Source: an uncultured delta proteobacterium (lineage in GTDB: Bacteria > Desulfobacterota > Deferrimicrobia > Deferrimicrobiales > Deferrimicrobiaceae). From it: 64,000 nt of DNA. The position numbers and the translations under genes are program-made. The stretch's first letter is position 1; each line of letters opens with the position of its first letter. Where the stretch lies: contig CAWEPX010000003.1 in assembly GCA_963811025.1 (NCBI GenBank), forward strand, positions 115,190 through 179,189. Reading direction: 5' to 3'. Positions 1 to 10,350 of this stretch are shown in pieces. The notes beneath the pieces were generated by a model. It worked only from the letters and a program-made list of their open reading frames with translations. It was not told the origin of the DNA and made no database searches.

Positions 1-532
1 CCGCCGCGACCGAGGAAAGGGCGCGGAGAAGAAACGTGGCGGCAGTGAGAAGCCCCTCCCGGGTGATTCCGATCACCGCGGGGAGGAAGAACGGCCCGTA
101 GCGCCAATCCCGCCCCCGGTCGACAAGCGGGACGATGACCGTTCCGTCGAAAAACACGTTGAGCGTGGCGGGAGCCGCCATGAGGAGGGTGAACGCGACC
201 GCGACGAGGAATCCCGCCCCCAGGAACTCCGCCGGGCGGATACGGGAAAGCGTGATGGCCGCCAGGGGGAGTGCGGCGTGGGCGAGCAGCGCGGGGATCG
301 ACCGGGAGAGGCTCACGCTGACCAGGAATATGAGCGTCGCCAGGAGTCTTGCCCTCGGGTCCACCCGTTGCAGGATGCCCGCCCGACGTGCCGTCTCCTC
401 CCGGAACATCGAGCGGGTGAAGAACAGGGACAGATCCCGGAGGGTCTTCTCGACGTGGGTCCTCCCCGGGACAGCTAGACCCCGCGACGCGGCCATCTCC
501 AGAAATCGCTTTTCCCTGGTGGTTTCGTCCAT
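1..532 (-). CDS. cbiQ: ECF transporter transmembrane component CbiQ (5' part; gene runs off window start)
   Basis: Minus-strand translation of 1-532 reads MDETTREKRFLEMAASRGLAV...DPRARLLATLIFLVSVSL...GITREGLL, the typical CbiQ DPRxKLL signature. ATG at 532. Immediately downstream of cbiN. Confidence 0.7.
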   Translation of the reverse strand, partial: MDETTREKRFLEMAASRGLAVPGRTHVEKTLRDLSLFFTRSMFREETARRAGILQRVDPRARLLATLIFLVSVSLSRSIPALLAHAALPLAAITLSRIRPAEFLGAGFLVAVAFTLLMAAPATLNVFFDGTVIVPLVDRGRDWRYGPFFLPAVIGITREGLLTAATFLLRALSSVAA

Positions 533-539
533 CGCCCCC

Positions 540-896
540 TCACGACCGCCTGTCGGCGGGAGGCCGTCCCCGTCGCGTCAGCCAGCGGGCGAGCAGGTAG
601 GCGCCTCCTCCCGAGGCGACGATCCCGAGGAAGGCGGAGAGAAGGTAGAAAACGCCCTGCGTCGGGAGGGGGGCGGTCTTCCGGCCGGGGAGGGCATAGT
701 CGGGCATCGGGGCCTTCCACGTATCCGCCGTGTTCTCCATCCCGGAAGGTGCGTAGCCGATCATCTTCCGGACCTCGTGGATCCCCCATTCGCCCCACGC
801 ACCCCCCGCCTTCATGATCTGCGGGAGATAAAGCCCGATGGGGGTCAGAAACGCCATCAGGCCCAGGGCAACCAGGAGTTTCCGGTATTCTCTCAT
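540..896 (-). CDS. cbiN: small two-TM cobalt/nickel ECF component (CbiN/NikN-like)
   Basis: 118 aa: N-terminal TM, periplasmic loop, C-terminal TM. Its ATG overlaps the cbiM stop (ATGA). Position between cbiM and cbiQ. Confidence 0.6.
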   Translation of the reverse strand: MREYRKLLVALGLMAFLTPIGLYLPQIMKAGGAWGEWGIHEVRKMIGYAPSGMENTADTWKAPMPDYALPGRKTAPLPTQGVFYLLSAFLGIVASGGGAYLLARWLTRRGRPPADRRS

Positions 897-1585
897 CGCG
901 CGGGTCCACTTTCCTGTGAGCCGAGAATCCAGGCGGATTTCGACCGGTGCAGGTACAGGATCACGATCCCCGTGACCAGGGCCTCGACCGCACCGATGAA
1001 GGTCATGTGCTGGATCATCATGACGGGAATGGCCACGGAGAGGGGATAGGGAGAGTAGAGGGCCCGCCCGTCCGGGGCCGTGTGCAGCAGGGGCTGAATC
1101 CCGAACATGACCGCCGTGGTGAATGCCGCCGCATTGATCCCGATGTATCCTGCCGCCCCGGCAGCCAGGGCTTTTCCCCTCTCGGAGGAGACCATGCGGG
1201 AGAGAAGACGGTACGTGTAATACCCCGTGAACGGCATCACGAAGGCGATGTTCAGGCAGTTCGCGCCGATCGCCGTCACCCCCCCGTCGCCGAAGAGAAG
1301 CGCCTGGATGGCGAGAGCGATGCTGATGGAGAGCATTGCTCCCCAGGGGCCCACGGCGATCGCGATCAGGACGCCCCCCACCGCGTGCCCCGTGCTTCCA
1401 CCCGGAAGGGGCACGTTGAACATCATCAGGAGGAAGGAGAAGGCTGCGGAGATGGCGAGGAGGGGAGCCCGCCGCGTGTCGAGGCTTTCCCGGACCTTCC
1501 GGGCCGCAATCCCCCAGAGAGGGACGCAGGCCGCGTATGCCGCGACGTACGTCGGGGGGCCCAGATACCCGTCGGGGATGTGCAT
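893..1585 (-). CDS. cbiM: cobalt/nickel ECF substrate-capture subunit CbiM (core from MHIPDGYL; in-frame upstream extension to 1807)
   Basis: MHIPDGYLGP... N-terminus and multi-TM body typical of CbiM/NikM. AGGAGA RBS upstream of the ATG at 1585. No stop separates it from an upstream MKL... start at 1807. Confidence 0.85.
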   Translation of the reverse strand: MHIPDGYLGPPTYVAAYAACVPLWGIAARKVRESLDTRRAPLLAISAAFSFLLMMFNVPLPGGSTGHAVGGVLIAIAVGPWGAMLSISIALAIQALLFGDGGVTAIGANCLNIAFVMPFTGYYTYRLLSRMVSSERGKALAAGAAGYIGINAAAFTTAVMFGIQPLLHTAPDGRALYSPYPLSVAIPVMMIQHMTFIGAVEALVTGIVILYLHRSKSAWILGSQESGPAR

Positions 1586-1921
1586 CGGTTCCGCTGTCTC
1601 CTGTCGAGTTTCCTTGTCCACACCGGGGAATCCGGTGGATTTGTCGTCTGTTACTGTCCCAGTTTTTCGGGTAAAGGGAAATTCCCGGCCGCAATACGGG
1701 CAGATGACGGTGTCGCCGGGCTTCCAGGCCCGCACTTCCTTCTGGGAGGCGCACGCCGGCAACAGGAGAAGGAGGGTGAGCAGGACGGTGAGAATTCGGA
1801 GCTTCATGGAGGTCTCCTTGCAGGGAGATTCCGGATGTCCGCGCAACTCTTGCGGGGTCGGCATAATCTCCATACTATAATGACCCGGCGCGCGACGCAA
1901 AGCGGCCGGGGAGGATGTCCG

Positions 1922-2719
1922 ATGGAAAACCGGGAATGGCTGGAATTCGCCGAGGACGTGGCACGGGGAGCGGGGAAGATCCTCCGGAAGAGCTACGGGA
2001 AGCGGCAGTCCATCCATTACAAAGGGGAGATCAACCTCGTGACGGACGTGGACCGGCAGTCCGAGGCCTACATCTTCGAGCGGATCCGGTCCGCCTTTCC
2101 GGACCACGGGATCCTTTCCGAGGAGAGTTCGGAGCACGTGTCCCCCTCGCCGTACCGATGGGTCATCGACCCCCTCGATGGCACGACCAATTATGCCCAC
2201 AATTACCCGTGCTTCTGTGTTTCCGTCGCGCTGGAACGGGACGGCAGGCTTCTTGCGGGTGCCGTGTTCGATCCGCTCCTGTCCGAATCGTTCACCGCTT
2301 CACCGGGGAACGGAGCCTTCCGAAACGGGGAGCGGATTGCGGTGTCCGGGGTGGACGACCTGCGCCGGTCCCTTCTTGCCACCGGGTTTGCCTACGACGT
2401 GAAGCAGGCGACCGACAACAATCTCGATTTGTTCCGGGAGTTCGTATTTACCGGGCAGGCGATCCGGCGCGACGGGTCGGCTGCCCTCGACATGTGTTAC
2501 CTCGCCTGCGGGAGGTTCGACGGGTTCTGGGAGCTGAAGCTCTCGCCCTGGGACACGGCCGCCGGGCTTCTCATCCTCAGGGAGGCGGGAGGGGTGGTGA
2601 CGCGTCTTGACGGTTCCCCGTACGATATCCACCAGCCCGACATCCTTGCCTCGAACGGCCACATCCATCAGCAGATGATGGCGGTGCTTCGCCGGGTTTT
2701 GGAGAAGGACGACCCATGA
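1922..2719 (+). CDS. suhB: inositol monophosphatase family protein (SuhB-like)
   Basis: 265 aa with DPLDGTTNY and WDxAAG motifs of the IMPase family. ATG at 1922. Confidence 0.85.
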   Translation: MENREWLEFAEDVARGAGKILRKSYGKRQSIHYKGEINLVTDVDRQSEAYIFERIRSAFPDHGILSEESSEHVSPSPYRWVIDPLDGTTNYAHNYPCFCVSVALERDGRLLAGAVFDPLLSESFTASPGNGAFRNGERIAVSGVDDLRRSLLATGFAYDVKQATDNNLDLFREFVFTGQAIRRDGSAALDMCYLACGRFDGFWELKLSPWDTAAGLLILREAGGVVTRLDGSPYDIHQPDILASNGHIHQQMMAVLRRVLEKDDP

Positions 2720-2795
2720 GCAACGGGGGGGCGCCTCCCGGCGGGAACGTCCCGCGGAAGCGGCCCCCCTCGGATGGAATTCCCCGGAACGGGAC

Positions 2796-3308
2796 CTACT
2801 TCTTCACGCCCTCCAGCAGTTTCACCGAGAACTTGTCGTGCTGAAACGGGTGGACATCCGGGAATTTCGCAAAGAGCCACCCCTTGAACACCTGCTTTCC
2901 CTTCTCCTGGATCTCGATGTTGCAGGCCGGATTCGACAAATCGTTGGAGGCGGATGTAATCTGGTCGGCCGTCATCGAGAAGTGAGGGAGGAAGTCGCCG
3001 GTCTTTACGACCAGGTCGGTATCCGGGATCGGGAACTCGGAGTTCAGGGGGATGGTGAACTCTTTCCGGGTCTTCGATTCCTTGAACTCCACCTCGATCT
3101 TCACGGCCTTCCACGCCGTCTTGACTTCCTCGGGGACGACAACCGTCTTTTCCGGCCCTCCCCCCATCGGTCCGTGCGGGGCTCCCGGCTGCCCAGGGAC
3201 TCCTTCCTGCATCGGCGAGGGAACCGGTGTTTGCTCTTTCTTCTGGCAGGAGGCTCCCGCGAAGGCAATCATCAGGAGCGCTGCGAACATCAGGGATATT
3301 CTCTTCAT
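2796..3308 (-). CDS. hypothetical lipoprotein
   Basis: MKRISLMFAALLMIAFAGASC lipobox signal. GGAGG RBS. 170 aa. Confidence 0.6.
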   Translation of the reverse strand: MKRISLMFAALLMIAFAGASCQKKEQTPVPSPMQEGVPGQPGAPHGPMGGGPEKTVVVPEEVKTAWKAVKIEVEFKESKTRKEFTIPLNSEFPIPDTDLVVKTGDFLPHFSMTADQITSASNDLSNPACNIEIQEKGKQVFKGWLFAKFPDVHPFQHDKFSVKLLEGVKK

Positions 3309-3384
3309 GGTTCCTCGTACCTCCTCGTTTATCGTGCCCCTCCAGGGGACAGATGTTGGTTTTTTCAAGGACTTGGCGCCTCGG

Positions 3385-3410
3385 GGCGGCGGCTCCGGTT
3401 CGAATCCCCG
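3385..3410. repeat. 26-bp repeat GGCGGCGGCTCCGGTTCGAATCCCCG (copy 1), tRNA T-arm-like fragment
   Basis: Identical 26-mer also at 3613-3638. Each copy lies just 3' of a tRNA-Ser gene but in inverted orientation. It does not fold as a complete tRNA. Confidence 0.6.
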
Positions 3411-3472
3411 CCATTGATGGTGGGGGACACTCCTGAGACGATCAACGATAACAGCCAGGAATGTCCCCCATG

Positions 3473-3566
3473 TGGCGGAGAGGGAGGGATTCGAACCCTC
3501 GAGGCGGGGATTAGCCACCTACGCGATTTCCAGTCGCGTTCCTTCGGCCAGCTCGGACACCTCTCC
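3473..3566 (-). tRNA. tRNA-Ser (anticodon GGA), long variable arm, CCA encoded
   Basis: Cloverleaf derived by hand: acceptor GGAGAGG/CCUCUCC, T-arm GAGGGUUCGAAUCCCUC, anticodon loop CUGGAAA. 94 nt. Confidence 0.9.
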
Positions 3567-3612
3567 GTACAACCCCGGTTCTCTTCGGCGGCACCGGCAA
3601 CTACCGGGAATC

Positions 3613-3638
3613 GGCGGCGGCTCCGGTTCGAATCCCCG
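3613..3638. repeat. 26-bp repeat copy 2, followed by CCGGATCTCCGG hairpin
   Basis: Exact match to 3385-3410. Confidence 0.6.
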
Positions 3639-3659
3639 GATCTCCGGCAATCGAAAAAC

Positions 3660-3753
<94 letters not shown>

Positions 3754-3816
3754 AAACCATCGGGGACGTTCCCGGTTCCCATTCGAGATGTGGAAGAGGA
3801 GTGTCCCCGCTCATCC

Positions 3817-3904
3817 TGGCGGAGGGAGTAGGATTCGAACCTACGGAAGCTCGCGCTTCAGCGGTTTTCAAGACCGCTGCCTTAAGCCACTCGGCCATCC
3901 CTCC
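3817..3904 (-). tRNA. tRNA-Ser (anticodon UGA), CCA encoded
   Basis: Acceptor GGAGGGA/UCCCUCC, T-arm GUAGGUUCGAAUCCUAC, anticodon loop CUUGAAA. 88 nt. Confidence 0.9.
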
Positions 3905-7375: not shown

Positions 7376-8121
7376 AAGGGGTGAGCGCGATCCTCATCAC
7401 GCGGAACGAGGAGCGCAACGTGGCCGATTGCCTCGCCTCCCTGGTCTTTGCGGACGAAATCATCGTCGTCGATTCGGGGAGCACGGACGGGACGCAGGAG
7501 ATCTGCCGGAGGGACCCGCGCGTGCGGTGGCACACCGAGGAGTGGAAAGGGTTCGGCCCCCAGAAAAACAGCGCCCTCGAGAAGGCGGCGGGACCCTGGA
7601 TCTTCAGCATCGACGCCGACGAACGCGTGTCGGACGAACTGGCCCGGGAAGTCACCGGGCTCGATCTGCCTTCTCTTTCCGTCGACGGTTTTCGCATTCC
7701 GAGGAAGAGCTATTTCGGGGACACCTGGGTGCGGCACGGGGGATGGTATCCGGACTATGTGATCCGTCTATGGCGCAAGGACAGGGGGAGATTCAACGAC
7801 CGGACGGTGCACGAATCCGTTCGCCTCCCCGGCCCCGTGGGGACGCTTCGGGGGGACCTCGTTCACTTCACCTACCGGGACACAGCGGACTTCCTGGAGC
7901 GGATGAGCCGATACGCGGCTCTCGGCGCGGAGGAACTGCGGAGGGAAGGGGTCCGCGGGACGCTCACCGACCTCTGGCTCCGTCCGCCGTTCACATTCGT
8001 TAAAATGTACGTTCTCAAGCGGGGGTTCCTGGACGGCGCGCTGGGTTTTCGCCTCGCGTTGCTCTACGCCCGGTACACCTACGCCAAATACGCGAAACTG
8101 AGGGCGCTTCATGGGGGGTAG
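7372..8121 (+). CDS. family 2 glycosyltransferase (LPS core, WaaE/KdtX-like)
   Basis: VSAILITRNEERNVADCLASL...DADE GT2 signature. Probable GTG start at 7372 overlapping the upstream stop (GTGA). Confidence 0.75.
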   Translation: MKGVSAILITRNEERNVADCLASLVFADEIIVVDSGSTDGTQEICRRDPRVRWHTEEWKGFGPQKNSALEKAAGPWIFSIDADERVSDELAREVTGLDLPSLSVDGFRIPRKSYFGDTWVRHGGWYPDYVIRLWRKDRGRFNDRTVHESVRLPGPVGTLRGDLVHFTYRDTADFLERMSRYAALGAEELRREGVRGTLTDLWLRPPFTFVKMYVLKRGFLDGALGFRLALLYARYTYAKYAKLRALHGG

Positions 8122-9240
8122 TCTCCGGGGGCGGGATGTCCGATCGATCGTGGTGTTCAAGCAGCGCCACATCGGGGACGTCCTTCTGTCCACGCCGGTC
8201 TTTCGCGCCCTGCGGGTATCGTTTCCGGGCGCGAGCACGGCGGCGGTGGTGAACGAAGGGACGGAGGCGATGCTGTCCGGGAATCCGGACATCGACCGGA
8301 TCGTGGTTTTCCGCCGATCCCGGAGGGACGCGGGAGGGATGGTACGCGGGAAGGAGGAACTGTCCTTCCTTCGGGCGATCCGTGCCTGCCGCCCCGATCT
8401 GGCCGTCCAGCTTACGGAAGGGGACCGGGGGGCGATCCTGTCCTTCCTGTCAGGCGCACGATTTCGTCTGGGAGTGGCTCCCGCGCAAGCCGGGGGATGT
8501 TCGGCAAGGAGCGTCTGTTTACCCATCTGTGCCCGCCGCCGGACCGGTATCGGCACGCGGTGCTCCGGGACCTGGAGATTCTGGCGGAAGCGGGGATCCC
8601 CCCGGCCGATCCCTCCCTGCGGTTTTTCTTCTCCCCCGGGGACCGGGAAAGTCTCGAGCGGAAACTGCACCGGGCGGGAGTTTCCGGGGGTATGCCGTAC
8701 GCGATCATCCATCCTACCTCCCGCTGGAAGTTCAAATGCTGGACGGACGAGGGGATGGCCGGGATCATTGCCCATCTGTCCCGGAAAGGGATCGTCCCGG
8801 TGGTGACTTCGGGGCCCGATCCTGCCGAGGTCGCCCAGGCGGACCGTATCGCAGCCCTATCGGGGGCTGATTGCGCCTCGCTCGCCGGCTTCCTGACTCT
8901 CAAGGAGCTGGGGGCGGCGATCGCATCGGCCCGTCTCTTCGTCGGAGTGGACTCCGCGCCGATGCACCTCGCGGCGGCGGTGGGGACACCGGCGGTCGCC
9001 CTCTTCGGTCCGACGGGGGCCTACAACTGGGCCCCGTGGGAGGGGATCGACTGGGGATACACGGCGGACAGGCCGGCGGGGACGCGGCAGGTGGGACGCC
9101 ACATCGTCGTGCAGAAGGAAGGGGATCTCCTGCGGCGGGGGAAGGACGAAGGCAGGCGCAACCCCGGCATGGAGGAGATCACGTTGGCGGAGGTGGCGGA
9201 GGCGGTCGACCGCGTTCTTCTCACGGGGGCGGGGCGGTAG
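8111..9240 (+). pseudogene. GT9 heptosyltransferase (WaaQ-like) interrupted by one frameshift near the G5 run at 8492-8496
   Basis: The N-terminal GT9 half (8111 frame, ...IVVFKQRHIGDVLLSTPVF...) and C-terminal half (8497 frame, ...VGVDSAPMHLAAAVGTPAVALFGPT) lie in different frames. They join at ccgggggatg. Confidence 0.65.
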
Positions 9241-9241
9241 C

Positions 9242-10350
9242 GTGTGGTCGATCGTCCACACCGAGTGGTCGGACGGGTTCGGCGGCCAGGAGCACCGGAT
9301 CCTGCTGGAGTGCGGGGAGATGGTGCGAAGGGGGCACCGAGGCCCACATCGCCTGCCGCCCGGAGGCGGCCCTTTTTTCGAAAGCGAAGGAGGCCGGGAT
9401 CCCGGTGCATACCGGTGCCGATCCGCTCTTCCGCCGACCCCGCCGCGATCCGAGGTCTGTTCTCCCTCTTTCGTAGGGAGAGGGTGCAAGTCGTCAACAC
9501 GCACAGCGGCAAGGATTCGTGGGTGGGTTCGATGGCCGCGAAGATCGCCGGGGTTCCGCTGCTGATCCGGACACGCCACATCTCGGTTCCGATCCGCAGG
9601 CACGCATTCAACATGGTCTACCGGTGGCCGGACGGGTACGTCACCACCGGGGAGATGATCCGCGATCATTTCCTTGCGGAGGGAATCCCGGCCGACCGGG
9701 TGGTCTCCATACCCACCGGTGTCGACCCGAAGAGGTTTTCGCCGACGGTCGACGGAAGTCGAATCCGGCAGGAGTTCGGCATCGCGCGGGATACTTTCCT
9801 CGTCTCGATGGTCGGGGTGTTGCGAAGCTGGAAGCGGCACGACCTCTTCCTTACGGCGGTCGGCCATCTCAAGGAACGGGGACTGTCGGTGCGCGCTCTC
9901 GTGGCGGGGGAGGGACCGCAGCGGGAGAATATTTCCACGGCGATCCGGGAACGGGACCTCACGGATTCGGTTACGATGACCGGGTACCGGGAGGATGTGC
10001 CGGAGATCCTCGCCGCGTCGAACGTGCTGGTGCTCCCCTCGGACCGGTTCGAGGGGGTCCCCCAGGTGATCCTCCAGGCCCTGGCGATGGAGCGGCCGGT
10101 GGTCGCCTCCCCCGTAGGAGGGATCCCGGAGGTGGTGCACCCGGGGGAAACCGGGCTTCTTTGCCCGACCGGGGATGCGGCCGCCTGTGCGGAAGCCCTG
10201 GCGCGCCTTGCCGGGGACCCGGCTCTGCGGGAGCGGCTGGGGAAGGCAGGACGGGATCTTGTCCTCTCCGGCTATACGACTGCCGCCATGTGCGATCGGA
10301 CGGAGGCGTTCTACGCTGTCCTGGCGTCCGGTAAGGGAATTGCCGCATGA
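9242..10350 (+). pseudogene. GT4 (group 1) glycosyltransferase with two N-terminal frameshifts (~9345 and ~9410)
   Basis: The N-terminus is spread over three frames: VWSIVHTEWSDGFGGQEHRILLECGEMVRRGH / EAHIACRPEAALFSKAKEAGIPVHT / ...VVNTHSGKDSW. The remaining 300 aa form an intact GT4 (EGVPQVILQALAMERPVVAS). One shift is an extra C in cacc. Confidence 0.65.

Follow-up and report, generated by a model that had tools for sequence, protein, structure and literature searches.

In the stretch of DNA analyzed here (64,000 nucleotides, referred to as the window), the gene for CbiM, the S component of an ECF-type transporter, is preceded in-frame by 74 codons that carry a signal peptide and a CPYC motif, which raises the question of whether this extension is part of CbiM or belongs to something else. 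On the minus strand, translation of the window from an ATG at 1807 to a TGA at 893 gave an ORF of 304 codons without a stop. The ORF starts with MKLRILTVLLTLLLLLPACASQKEVRAWKPGDTVICPYCGREFPFTRKTGTVTDDKSTGFPGVDKETRQETAEP and later reads MHIPDGYL at 1585, and its first 74 codons are the extension. An initial sequence-only reading had described this uninterrupted run, which translation confirmed, and both ribosome-binding sites that it named are present, AAGGAGA (1819-1813) before the ATG at 1807 and AGGAGA (1602-1597) before the ATG at 1585. When the fused ORF was compared with family models, the Pfam CbiM match began at residue 76 and the NCBIfam match one position earlier, at the initial Met of MHIPDGYL (residue 75). 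The 74-residue extension alone gave weak zinc-knuckle matches in Pfam and NCBIfam, all below the family thresholds. The features of the locus, as we now read them, are as follows.

1..532, minus strand: 5′ part of cbiQ (T component), running off the left end of the window; CbiQ of the relatives has 305 aa
540..896, minus strand: PDGLE-domain gene of 118 aa, the NikN/CbiN equivalent; overlaps cbiM by ATGA
893..1585, minus strand: cbiM/nikM, the 230-aa S component of an ECF-type Ni/Co transporter, from Pfam and NCBIfam models and homolog lengths
1586..1650, minus strand: 65-nt intergenic spacer between the small gene and cbiM, with the cbiM Shine-Dalgarno sequence AGGAGA (1602-1597)
1651..1807, minus strand: small lipoprotein gene, 51 codons in its native frame, broken by an extra T; from the 51-aa protein of the relatives and the DNA alignment
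1651..1653, minus strand: native TAA stop of the small lipoprotein gene, kept in the window and out of frame past the insertion
1673..1675, minus strand: TTT run with the single-base insertion; relatives have TT (CCC-TT-ACCC), the window CCC-TTT-ACCC
1870..1882, minus strand: conserved CATTATAGTATGG motif upstream of the small-gene ATG, in all 10 lineages compared
1922..2719, plus strand: divergent gene of the inositol-monophosphatase family, the conserved left neighbor of the operon; PF00459 in every relative

We aligned positions 1570-1830 of the window with ten independent metagenome contigs and found a mean column identity of 99% at the DNA level. A single extra T in the window accounts for the sole gap in this alignment, and every contig shares the TAA. 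The same single-T insertion is seen against every one of 34 related loci with the small ORF, whose aligned parts show about 80-97% DNA identity to the window, and it also holds against distant lineages (L171-176, 91% identity; L081, 82%; L082, 80%). Apart from the extra T, the window DNA in the small gene is identical to that of the relatives. Deleting one T in silico restored a frame that ends in GREFPLPEKLGQ followed by the stop, with REFPLPEKLGQ as the C-terminus. From the ATG of the small gene to the ATG of cbiM, relatives have 221 nt and the window has 222 nt, so that here the two genes share one frame, and the native TAA at 1651-1653 is skipped because the insertion shifts the frame. It had been suggested that a small upstream ORF was fused to cbiM by a lost stop; the small ORF is indeed fused, however, the stop was never lost, since the TAA is kept and a 1-nt insertion bypasses it.

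The composition of the extension follows from this alignment. Residues 1-44 (through REFP) are its sole genuine protein sequence, and residues 45-74 (FTRKTGTVTDDKSTGFPGVDKETRQETAEP), 30 of the 74, are the frameshifted tail of the small gene together with the translated 65-nt spacer, including the Shine-Dalgarno sequence of cbiM. What had been described as a linker is, by the alignment and the deletion of one T, an out-of-frame gene tail plus an intergenic spacer, and the signal peptide and CxxC motif, real as they are, belong to a separate small putative lipoprotein and not to CbiM. We propose that the one-base insertion joins two unrelated things, a separate, conserved 51-codon lipoprotein gene and 65 nt of untranslated spacer, and that it does so by moving the last seven codons of the small gene into the cbiM frame. 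The small-protein family has a conserved C-terminus, PEKLG[KQ], which the frameshift in the window destroys. In relatives, the cbiM frame is already stop-free over the stretch of the extension (L177, frame 0), so a +1 insertion anywhere towards the 3′ end of the upstream gene gives an in-frame fusion and the long open frame in the window needs no special explanation. On this comparison, the open frame is no more than chance expectation once its cause is known.

We then looked at how cbiM begins elsewhere, using 160 related cbiM loci taken from genome and metagenome collections. An upstream stop closes the cbiM frame in 159 of these, leaving an open stretch with a median of 10 codons, and an upstream in-frame start with a signal peptide before cbiM occurs in 0/159. 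The best 120 database homologs of the fused ORF have 227-251 aa and cover the CbiM part only. With the 74-residue stretch as the query, the matches were stand-alone proteins of 51 aa, or of 73 aa where gene calling had started from an ATG further upstream. Fusion to CbiM is absent from all of the more than 120 members of this small-protein family examined (46-83 aa), and an exhaustive profile search of 1.84 billion representatives returned no fusion of CbiM to the small lipoprotein. The earlier suggestion of a periplasmic metal-binding module fused to CbiM is therefore not supported (0/159 loci, best 120 homologs of about 230 aa, small proteins of 46-83 aa). A search of related genomes for a separate small gene had also been advised, and a 51-codon gene is found in 34/34 loci carrying the region; in each of these loci with the small ORF, the stop of the small gene and a change of frame precede cbiM. 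The sequence-only reading had held that a stop before MHIPDGYL in orthologs would make the fusion an assembly indel, and that stop is what the orthologs have. Judged by these comparisons, the 74-residue extension is not part of CbiM and the fusion is not biological; whether the T is an error or a mutation, the fusion is neither conserved nor designed.

Once the artefactual extension is removed, the CbiM of the window is not unusual. Its core matches the models end to end, as expected of CbiM/NikM S components (TtNikM2, PMC3945884; Nik(MN)QO/CbiMNQO): Pfam PF01891 with E=5.8e-58 over profile positions 1-204 of 205, NCBIfam NF008873 with 318.7 bits (cut-off 225), and NCBIfam PRK11909 with E=2.4e-95 from residue 75 of the fused ORF. 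Counted in the translation, the protein starts with Met1-His2 (MHIPDGYLG) and has Thr65 and His67 (STGH). In NikM, the mature N-terminus is Met1-His2 with a conserved 9-residue loop, and His67 is the fourth nitrogen ligand; CbiM/NikM requires a free Met1 amino group, and a single residue added at the N-terminus of NikM abolished transport (PMC3945884). Lipoprotein processing of the fused protein would leave 55 extra residues and thus a CbiM without the Met1-His2 metal site, and a permanently extended CbiM would be non-functional. We infer that translation of CbiM starts at its own ATG (1585), leaving Met1-His2 free at the N-terminus, and that the small lipoprotein is made separately. An architecture of signal peptide, CxxC motif and CbiM would contradict the free-Met1 requirement of NikM/CbiM, and should be neither annotated nor interpreted.

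Could the joined frame nevertheless have a function? If the extension were a genuine N-terminal periplasmic metal-binding module of CbiM, delivering metal with or without later proteolytic release, then the open frame, the ribosome-binding sites at both starts, and the real CPYC motif and signal peptide would be accounted for. We consider this highly improbable, however, since the fusion is in no relative, the supposed linker is translated intergenic spacer and out-of-frame gene tail, the fused protein lacks the conserved C-terminus of the small protein (PEKLG[KQ]-stop), and CbiM/NikM needs the amino group of Met1 to be free (PMC3945884). We give still less credence, close to none, to programmed ribosomal frameshifting or translational coupling that deliberately links the small ORF to cbiM. 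The two genes do lie close together on the same strand in all relatives, but the relatives have a conserved TAA 65 nt before cbiM, which has its own Shine-Dalgarno sequence, and the spacer varies among lineages from 13 to 115 nt or takes up whole genes (nikR, or an outer-membrane-barrel-like gene).

The remaining question is whether the extra T exists in the organism or only in the assembly. With contig L187 as the indel reference, 10.4 kb of the window could be aligned, and over this length we found 10 indels inside genes that are not multiples of three. The small ORF has one of them, the extra T. A further two, 1-nt insertions at ~8485 and ~8497, split a GT9 (heptosyltransferase-like) gene into plus-strand ORFs at 8111-8806 and 8497-9240; in L187 this gene is an intact 375-aa ORF (2331-3458). 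The remaining seven, at ~9337-9490, scatter a GT4 glycosyltransferase gene (about 9242-10350, plus strand) over three frames, with single-base indels that include ~9337 and 9401-9414, and the gene is intact (374 aa) in L187/L188. Compared with L187 in the same way, L180, L171, L178, L189 and L190 had no such genic indels over 3-11 kb. The split GT9 and GT4 genes point to an indel-prone assembly. Because the same assembly has frame-breaking single-base indels in neighboring conserved genes, the extra T is most probably an error of sequencing or assembly, and we hold this reading with good confidence. A real and recent mutation of the strain, which would leave the small lipoprotein gene as a pseudogene or a truncation variant without the PLPEKLGQ tail, is an unlikely explanation that we nonetheless take seriously. 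Ribosomes starting at 1807 would then make an aberrant lipoprotein-CbiM fusion, and functional CbiM would still come from its own start. The lineage of the window stands apart (~3% divergence from the closest relatives, about 96-97% identity to the nearest contigs), and we found no exact matches to the 230-aa CbiM, the 118-aa PDGLE protein or the 304-aa fused ORF in public collections. The adjoining cbiM, PDGLE, IMPase and DUF2155 genes are intact, the 3.4 kb around the fusion contain no coding indel other than the extra T, and lengthening of a short T run is also a natural event. Against a mutation, the native frame downstream of the insertion is otherwise identical to that of relatives, including the TAA, and so shows no decay; the small protein is under purifying selection everywhere else; and the other frame-breaking 1-nt indels fall in glycosyltransferase genes of the same assembly, with none in the five other assemblies. 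Given this, the assembly is flagged for frame-breaking single-base indels, and any further unusual fusions or split genes in the window should be checked in the same way.

With the frame restored, what remains is a small gene in its own right. Its product in one relative (P0121, 51 aa) reads MKLRILTVLLTLLLLLPACASRKEVRVWKPGDTVICPYCGREFPLPEKLGQ, followed by the stop. By profile search, the family comprises at least 278 clusters at 90% identity, and the best 120 of these have 49-83 aa; the exhaustive search added a few distant small lipoproteins (P0248, P0250, P0252, P0260 and P0292). As a yardstick for a lipobox, we used a charged n-region, a hydrophobic h-region and [LVI][ASTVI][GAS]C with an invariant Cys. 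The small protein has K2/R4 in its n-region and an L-rich core, and Cys19 is invariant in 50/50 aligned members. At lipobox position -3, L or F occurs in 110 of 126 members, at -1 A, S or G in 125 of 126, and at -2 P, S, G or A, with Pro there in 49 of 126 including the window; the strict PROSITE-type pattern fits 72 of 126. In the window the putative lipobox is L-P-A-C (Cys19) and the mature part has 33 aa, a length shared by 102 of 126 family members. The mature motif of the family is W-x-P-G-D-x-[VI]-I-C-P-H-C-G-R-E-F-x-[VL]-P-E-K-L-G-[KQ], directly followed by the stop, and that of the window is W-x-P-G-D-x-V-I-C-P-Y-C-G-R-E-F-P-L-P-E-K-L-G-Q. CPHC is found in 107 members, and the window lineage has CPYC; about 15% of members have another residue in place of the His of CP(H/Y)C. 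Across 12 lineages, pN/pS is 0.19 for the last 24 codons of the native frame, which indicates that the small ORF is a real coding gene. In two members, L180/L181 (P0124) and P0188, CPYS stands in place of CPYC and the second Cys is lost. These are either sequencing variants or a sign that the second Cys is not strictly required, and they weaken a simple two-Cys metal-site model. In L178 (~1179) and L179 (~1612), whose lineage has the closest CbiM (93% identity), the apparent start codon of the small ORF is TTG and not ATG (ACG TTG AAG CTC...).

In the AlphaFold model of the small protein (mean pLDDT 78.6), the only elements are the helix of the signal peptide and a single beta-hairpin that holds the CPxC turn, too little structure for fold comparison to be informative; the beta strands are at 33-35 and 42-44, and mean pLDDT is 86 over residues 31-40. 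Searches of Pfam, NCBIfam and the PDB with native members gave only a sub-threshold resemblance to zinc knuckles, the best Pfam match being zf-C2HC_2 at 20.8 bits against a cut-off of 27. In the model, the small protein shares with zinc knuckles and half zinc-ribbons (zf-C2HC_2, Zn_ribbon_19, YnfU; also the beta-hairpin of the C2H2 finger) a CPxC turn between short strands. It has, however, two Cys, and a His in about 85% of members, where those have four ligands, and it is predicted to be exported and presumably lipidated, unlike cytoplasmic zinc fingers. We rejected membership in the zinc ribbons or zinc fingers, given one CxxC in the mature peptide against four ligands and the sub-threshold scores. 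Giant repeat proteins with a W..G....CP..G+.F.LP motif dominated the matches of the exhaustive profile search. These proteins (0.5-2.9 thousand aa; P0241-P0247, P0249, P0251, P0253 and others) have 5-18 tandem repeats of ~45 aa with the motif SP[YF]..G....V....W..G....CP.TGR.F.LP..LP; the repeats share a W..G....CP..G+.F.xP core with the small lipoprotein, and their second Cys is usually Thr.

The gene order in relatives is DegT, DUF2155, IMPase (opposite strand), the 51-aa gene, CbiM, PDGLE, CbiQ, CbiO and LarA, and the neighborhood in the window is the same as in these syntenic relatives. The relatives have 65 nt between the end of the small gene and the ATG of cbiM (230 aa), with these two genes in different frames; their CbiQ begins 8 nt past the PDGLE stop, and CbiO and LarA (Lar_N/LarA_C) come next. 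For the N, Q and O components, PDGLE and the start of cbiQ lie in the window, and cbiO is seen in the syntenic relatives. Compared with CbiMNQO systems, the N component of the window, a PDGLE-type protein, has a gene of its own. In some sister lineages it is fused to CbiM, as in the 348-349-aa proteins of L184 and L185, and the NCBIfam model NF005598 spans CbiM plus the PDGLE ORF. The gene nikR is inserted after the small gene in L001, L002, L182, L183, L185 and L186. We propose that the real operon consists of the small lipoprotein, CbiM, PDGLE (NikN-like), CbiQ, CbiO and LarA, with NikR added in some lineages. NikR in those lineages indicates a nickel uptake system of the ECF type, and the context is nickel-related in two respects, NikR inside the operon (six lineages) and LarA downstream. 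However the operon is otherwise rearranged, the small gene remains its first gene. In the initial set of 160 cbiM loci, it adjoins only four of the closest CbiM relatives (77-86% protein identity); judged by the source name of P0017, its distribution is thus limited to a Deferrimicrobia-like clade. Some sister lineages have an outer-membrane beta-barrel-like gene between the small gene and cbiM (L081, 2426-2946; L100, about 460-830; L178, about 1350-1560). The L081 copy looks frameshifted, and only a 3′ remnant is left in L178/L179 and in the spacer of L171-176. This gene suggests that the ancestral operon also encoded an outer-membrane component.

Upstream of the small-gene ATG, the CATTATAGTATGG motif is found in L001, L081, L082, L161, L171, L180, L182, L184, L185 and the window, with 1-2 changes in L184 and L185. 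This motif is a possible -10 region of the operon promoter. A simple scan called no sigma-70 promoter in 1500-2000. The operator of delta-proteobacterial NikR is of the type GTGTTAC-N13/14-GTAACAC (PMC545781); upstream of the small ORF in 10 lineages, we found no convincing NikR site, only GC-rich chance palindromes. The spacer between the small gene and cbiM contains a small, GC-rich hairpin at 1621-1637, CACCGGATTCCCCGGTG (minus strand), which could affect the relative expression of the two genes.

What might the small lipoprotein do? We speculate that it is lipid-anchored on the periplasmic side, where Cys36, His/Tyr38 and Cys39 may bind nickel, perhaps in a dimer, for delivery to the transporter. 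As a tentative proposal, the 51-aa CP(H/Y)C lipoprotein could be an undescribed accessory subunit of a NikMNQO-type ECF transporter, a membrane-tethered periplasmic peptide for nickel capture and hand-over, possibly a dimer or acting with the N-terminal site of NikM. Such a subunit would be restricted to Deferrimicrobia-like bacteria and would always head a (nikR)-nikM-nikN-nikQ-nikO-larA operon. The proposal draws on gene order, lipobox and Cys motif only. Since the DegT, DUF2155 and IMPase neighborhood is also syntenic, the linkage may partly reflect shared ancestry and is weak evidence of function.

Known precedents differ from the small lipoprotein in several respects. NikK and NikL are extra periplasm-facing components of NikKMLQO transporters with N-terminal transmembrane segments; they occur in nik operons without NikN, and a nickel-binding role has been suggested (PMC545781; PMC2667541). 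Like them, the small lipoprotein would be N-terminally anchored and periplasm-exposed, and its operon is of the nik type with NikR in some lineages. Unlike NikK/NikL systems, however, it has a NikN-like PDGLE gene beside it, and it is only 51 aa long (33 aa mature) and would be anchored through its lipobox. We rejected membership in NikK/NikL on the presence of the PDGLE gene and because no curated family threshold was reached; the distinction is drawn from descriptions. A second likeness is to Lar(MN)QO, in that a gene of the LarA family (superfamily reference PMC7583248) directly follows the transporter operon in relatives, outside the window, which links the system to nickel supply for the nickel-pincer cofactor.

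In Lactiplantibacillus, the nickel transporter Lar(MN)QO is associated with the lar operon, and we know of no small lipoprotein described for it. As a by-product of the frame correction, then, a tightly conserved, unannotated 51-codon gene for a putative lipoprotein is seen to head a nickel ECF-transporter/LarA operon, and its product is a modest but testable candidate for a new periplasmic nickel-handling component. Elsewhere in the window, at about 3400-3900, there are repeated tRNA-like sequences, with GFEPS in the ORF translations and self-matches at several BLAST offsets.
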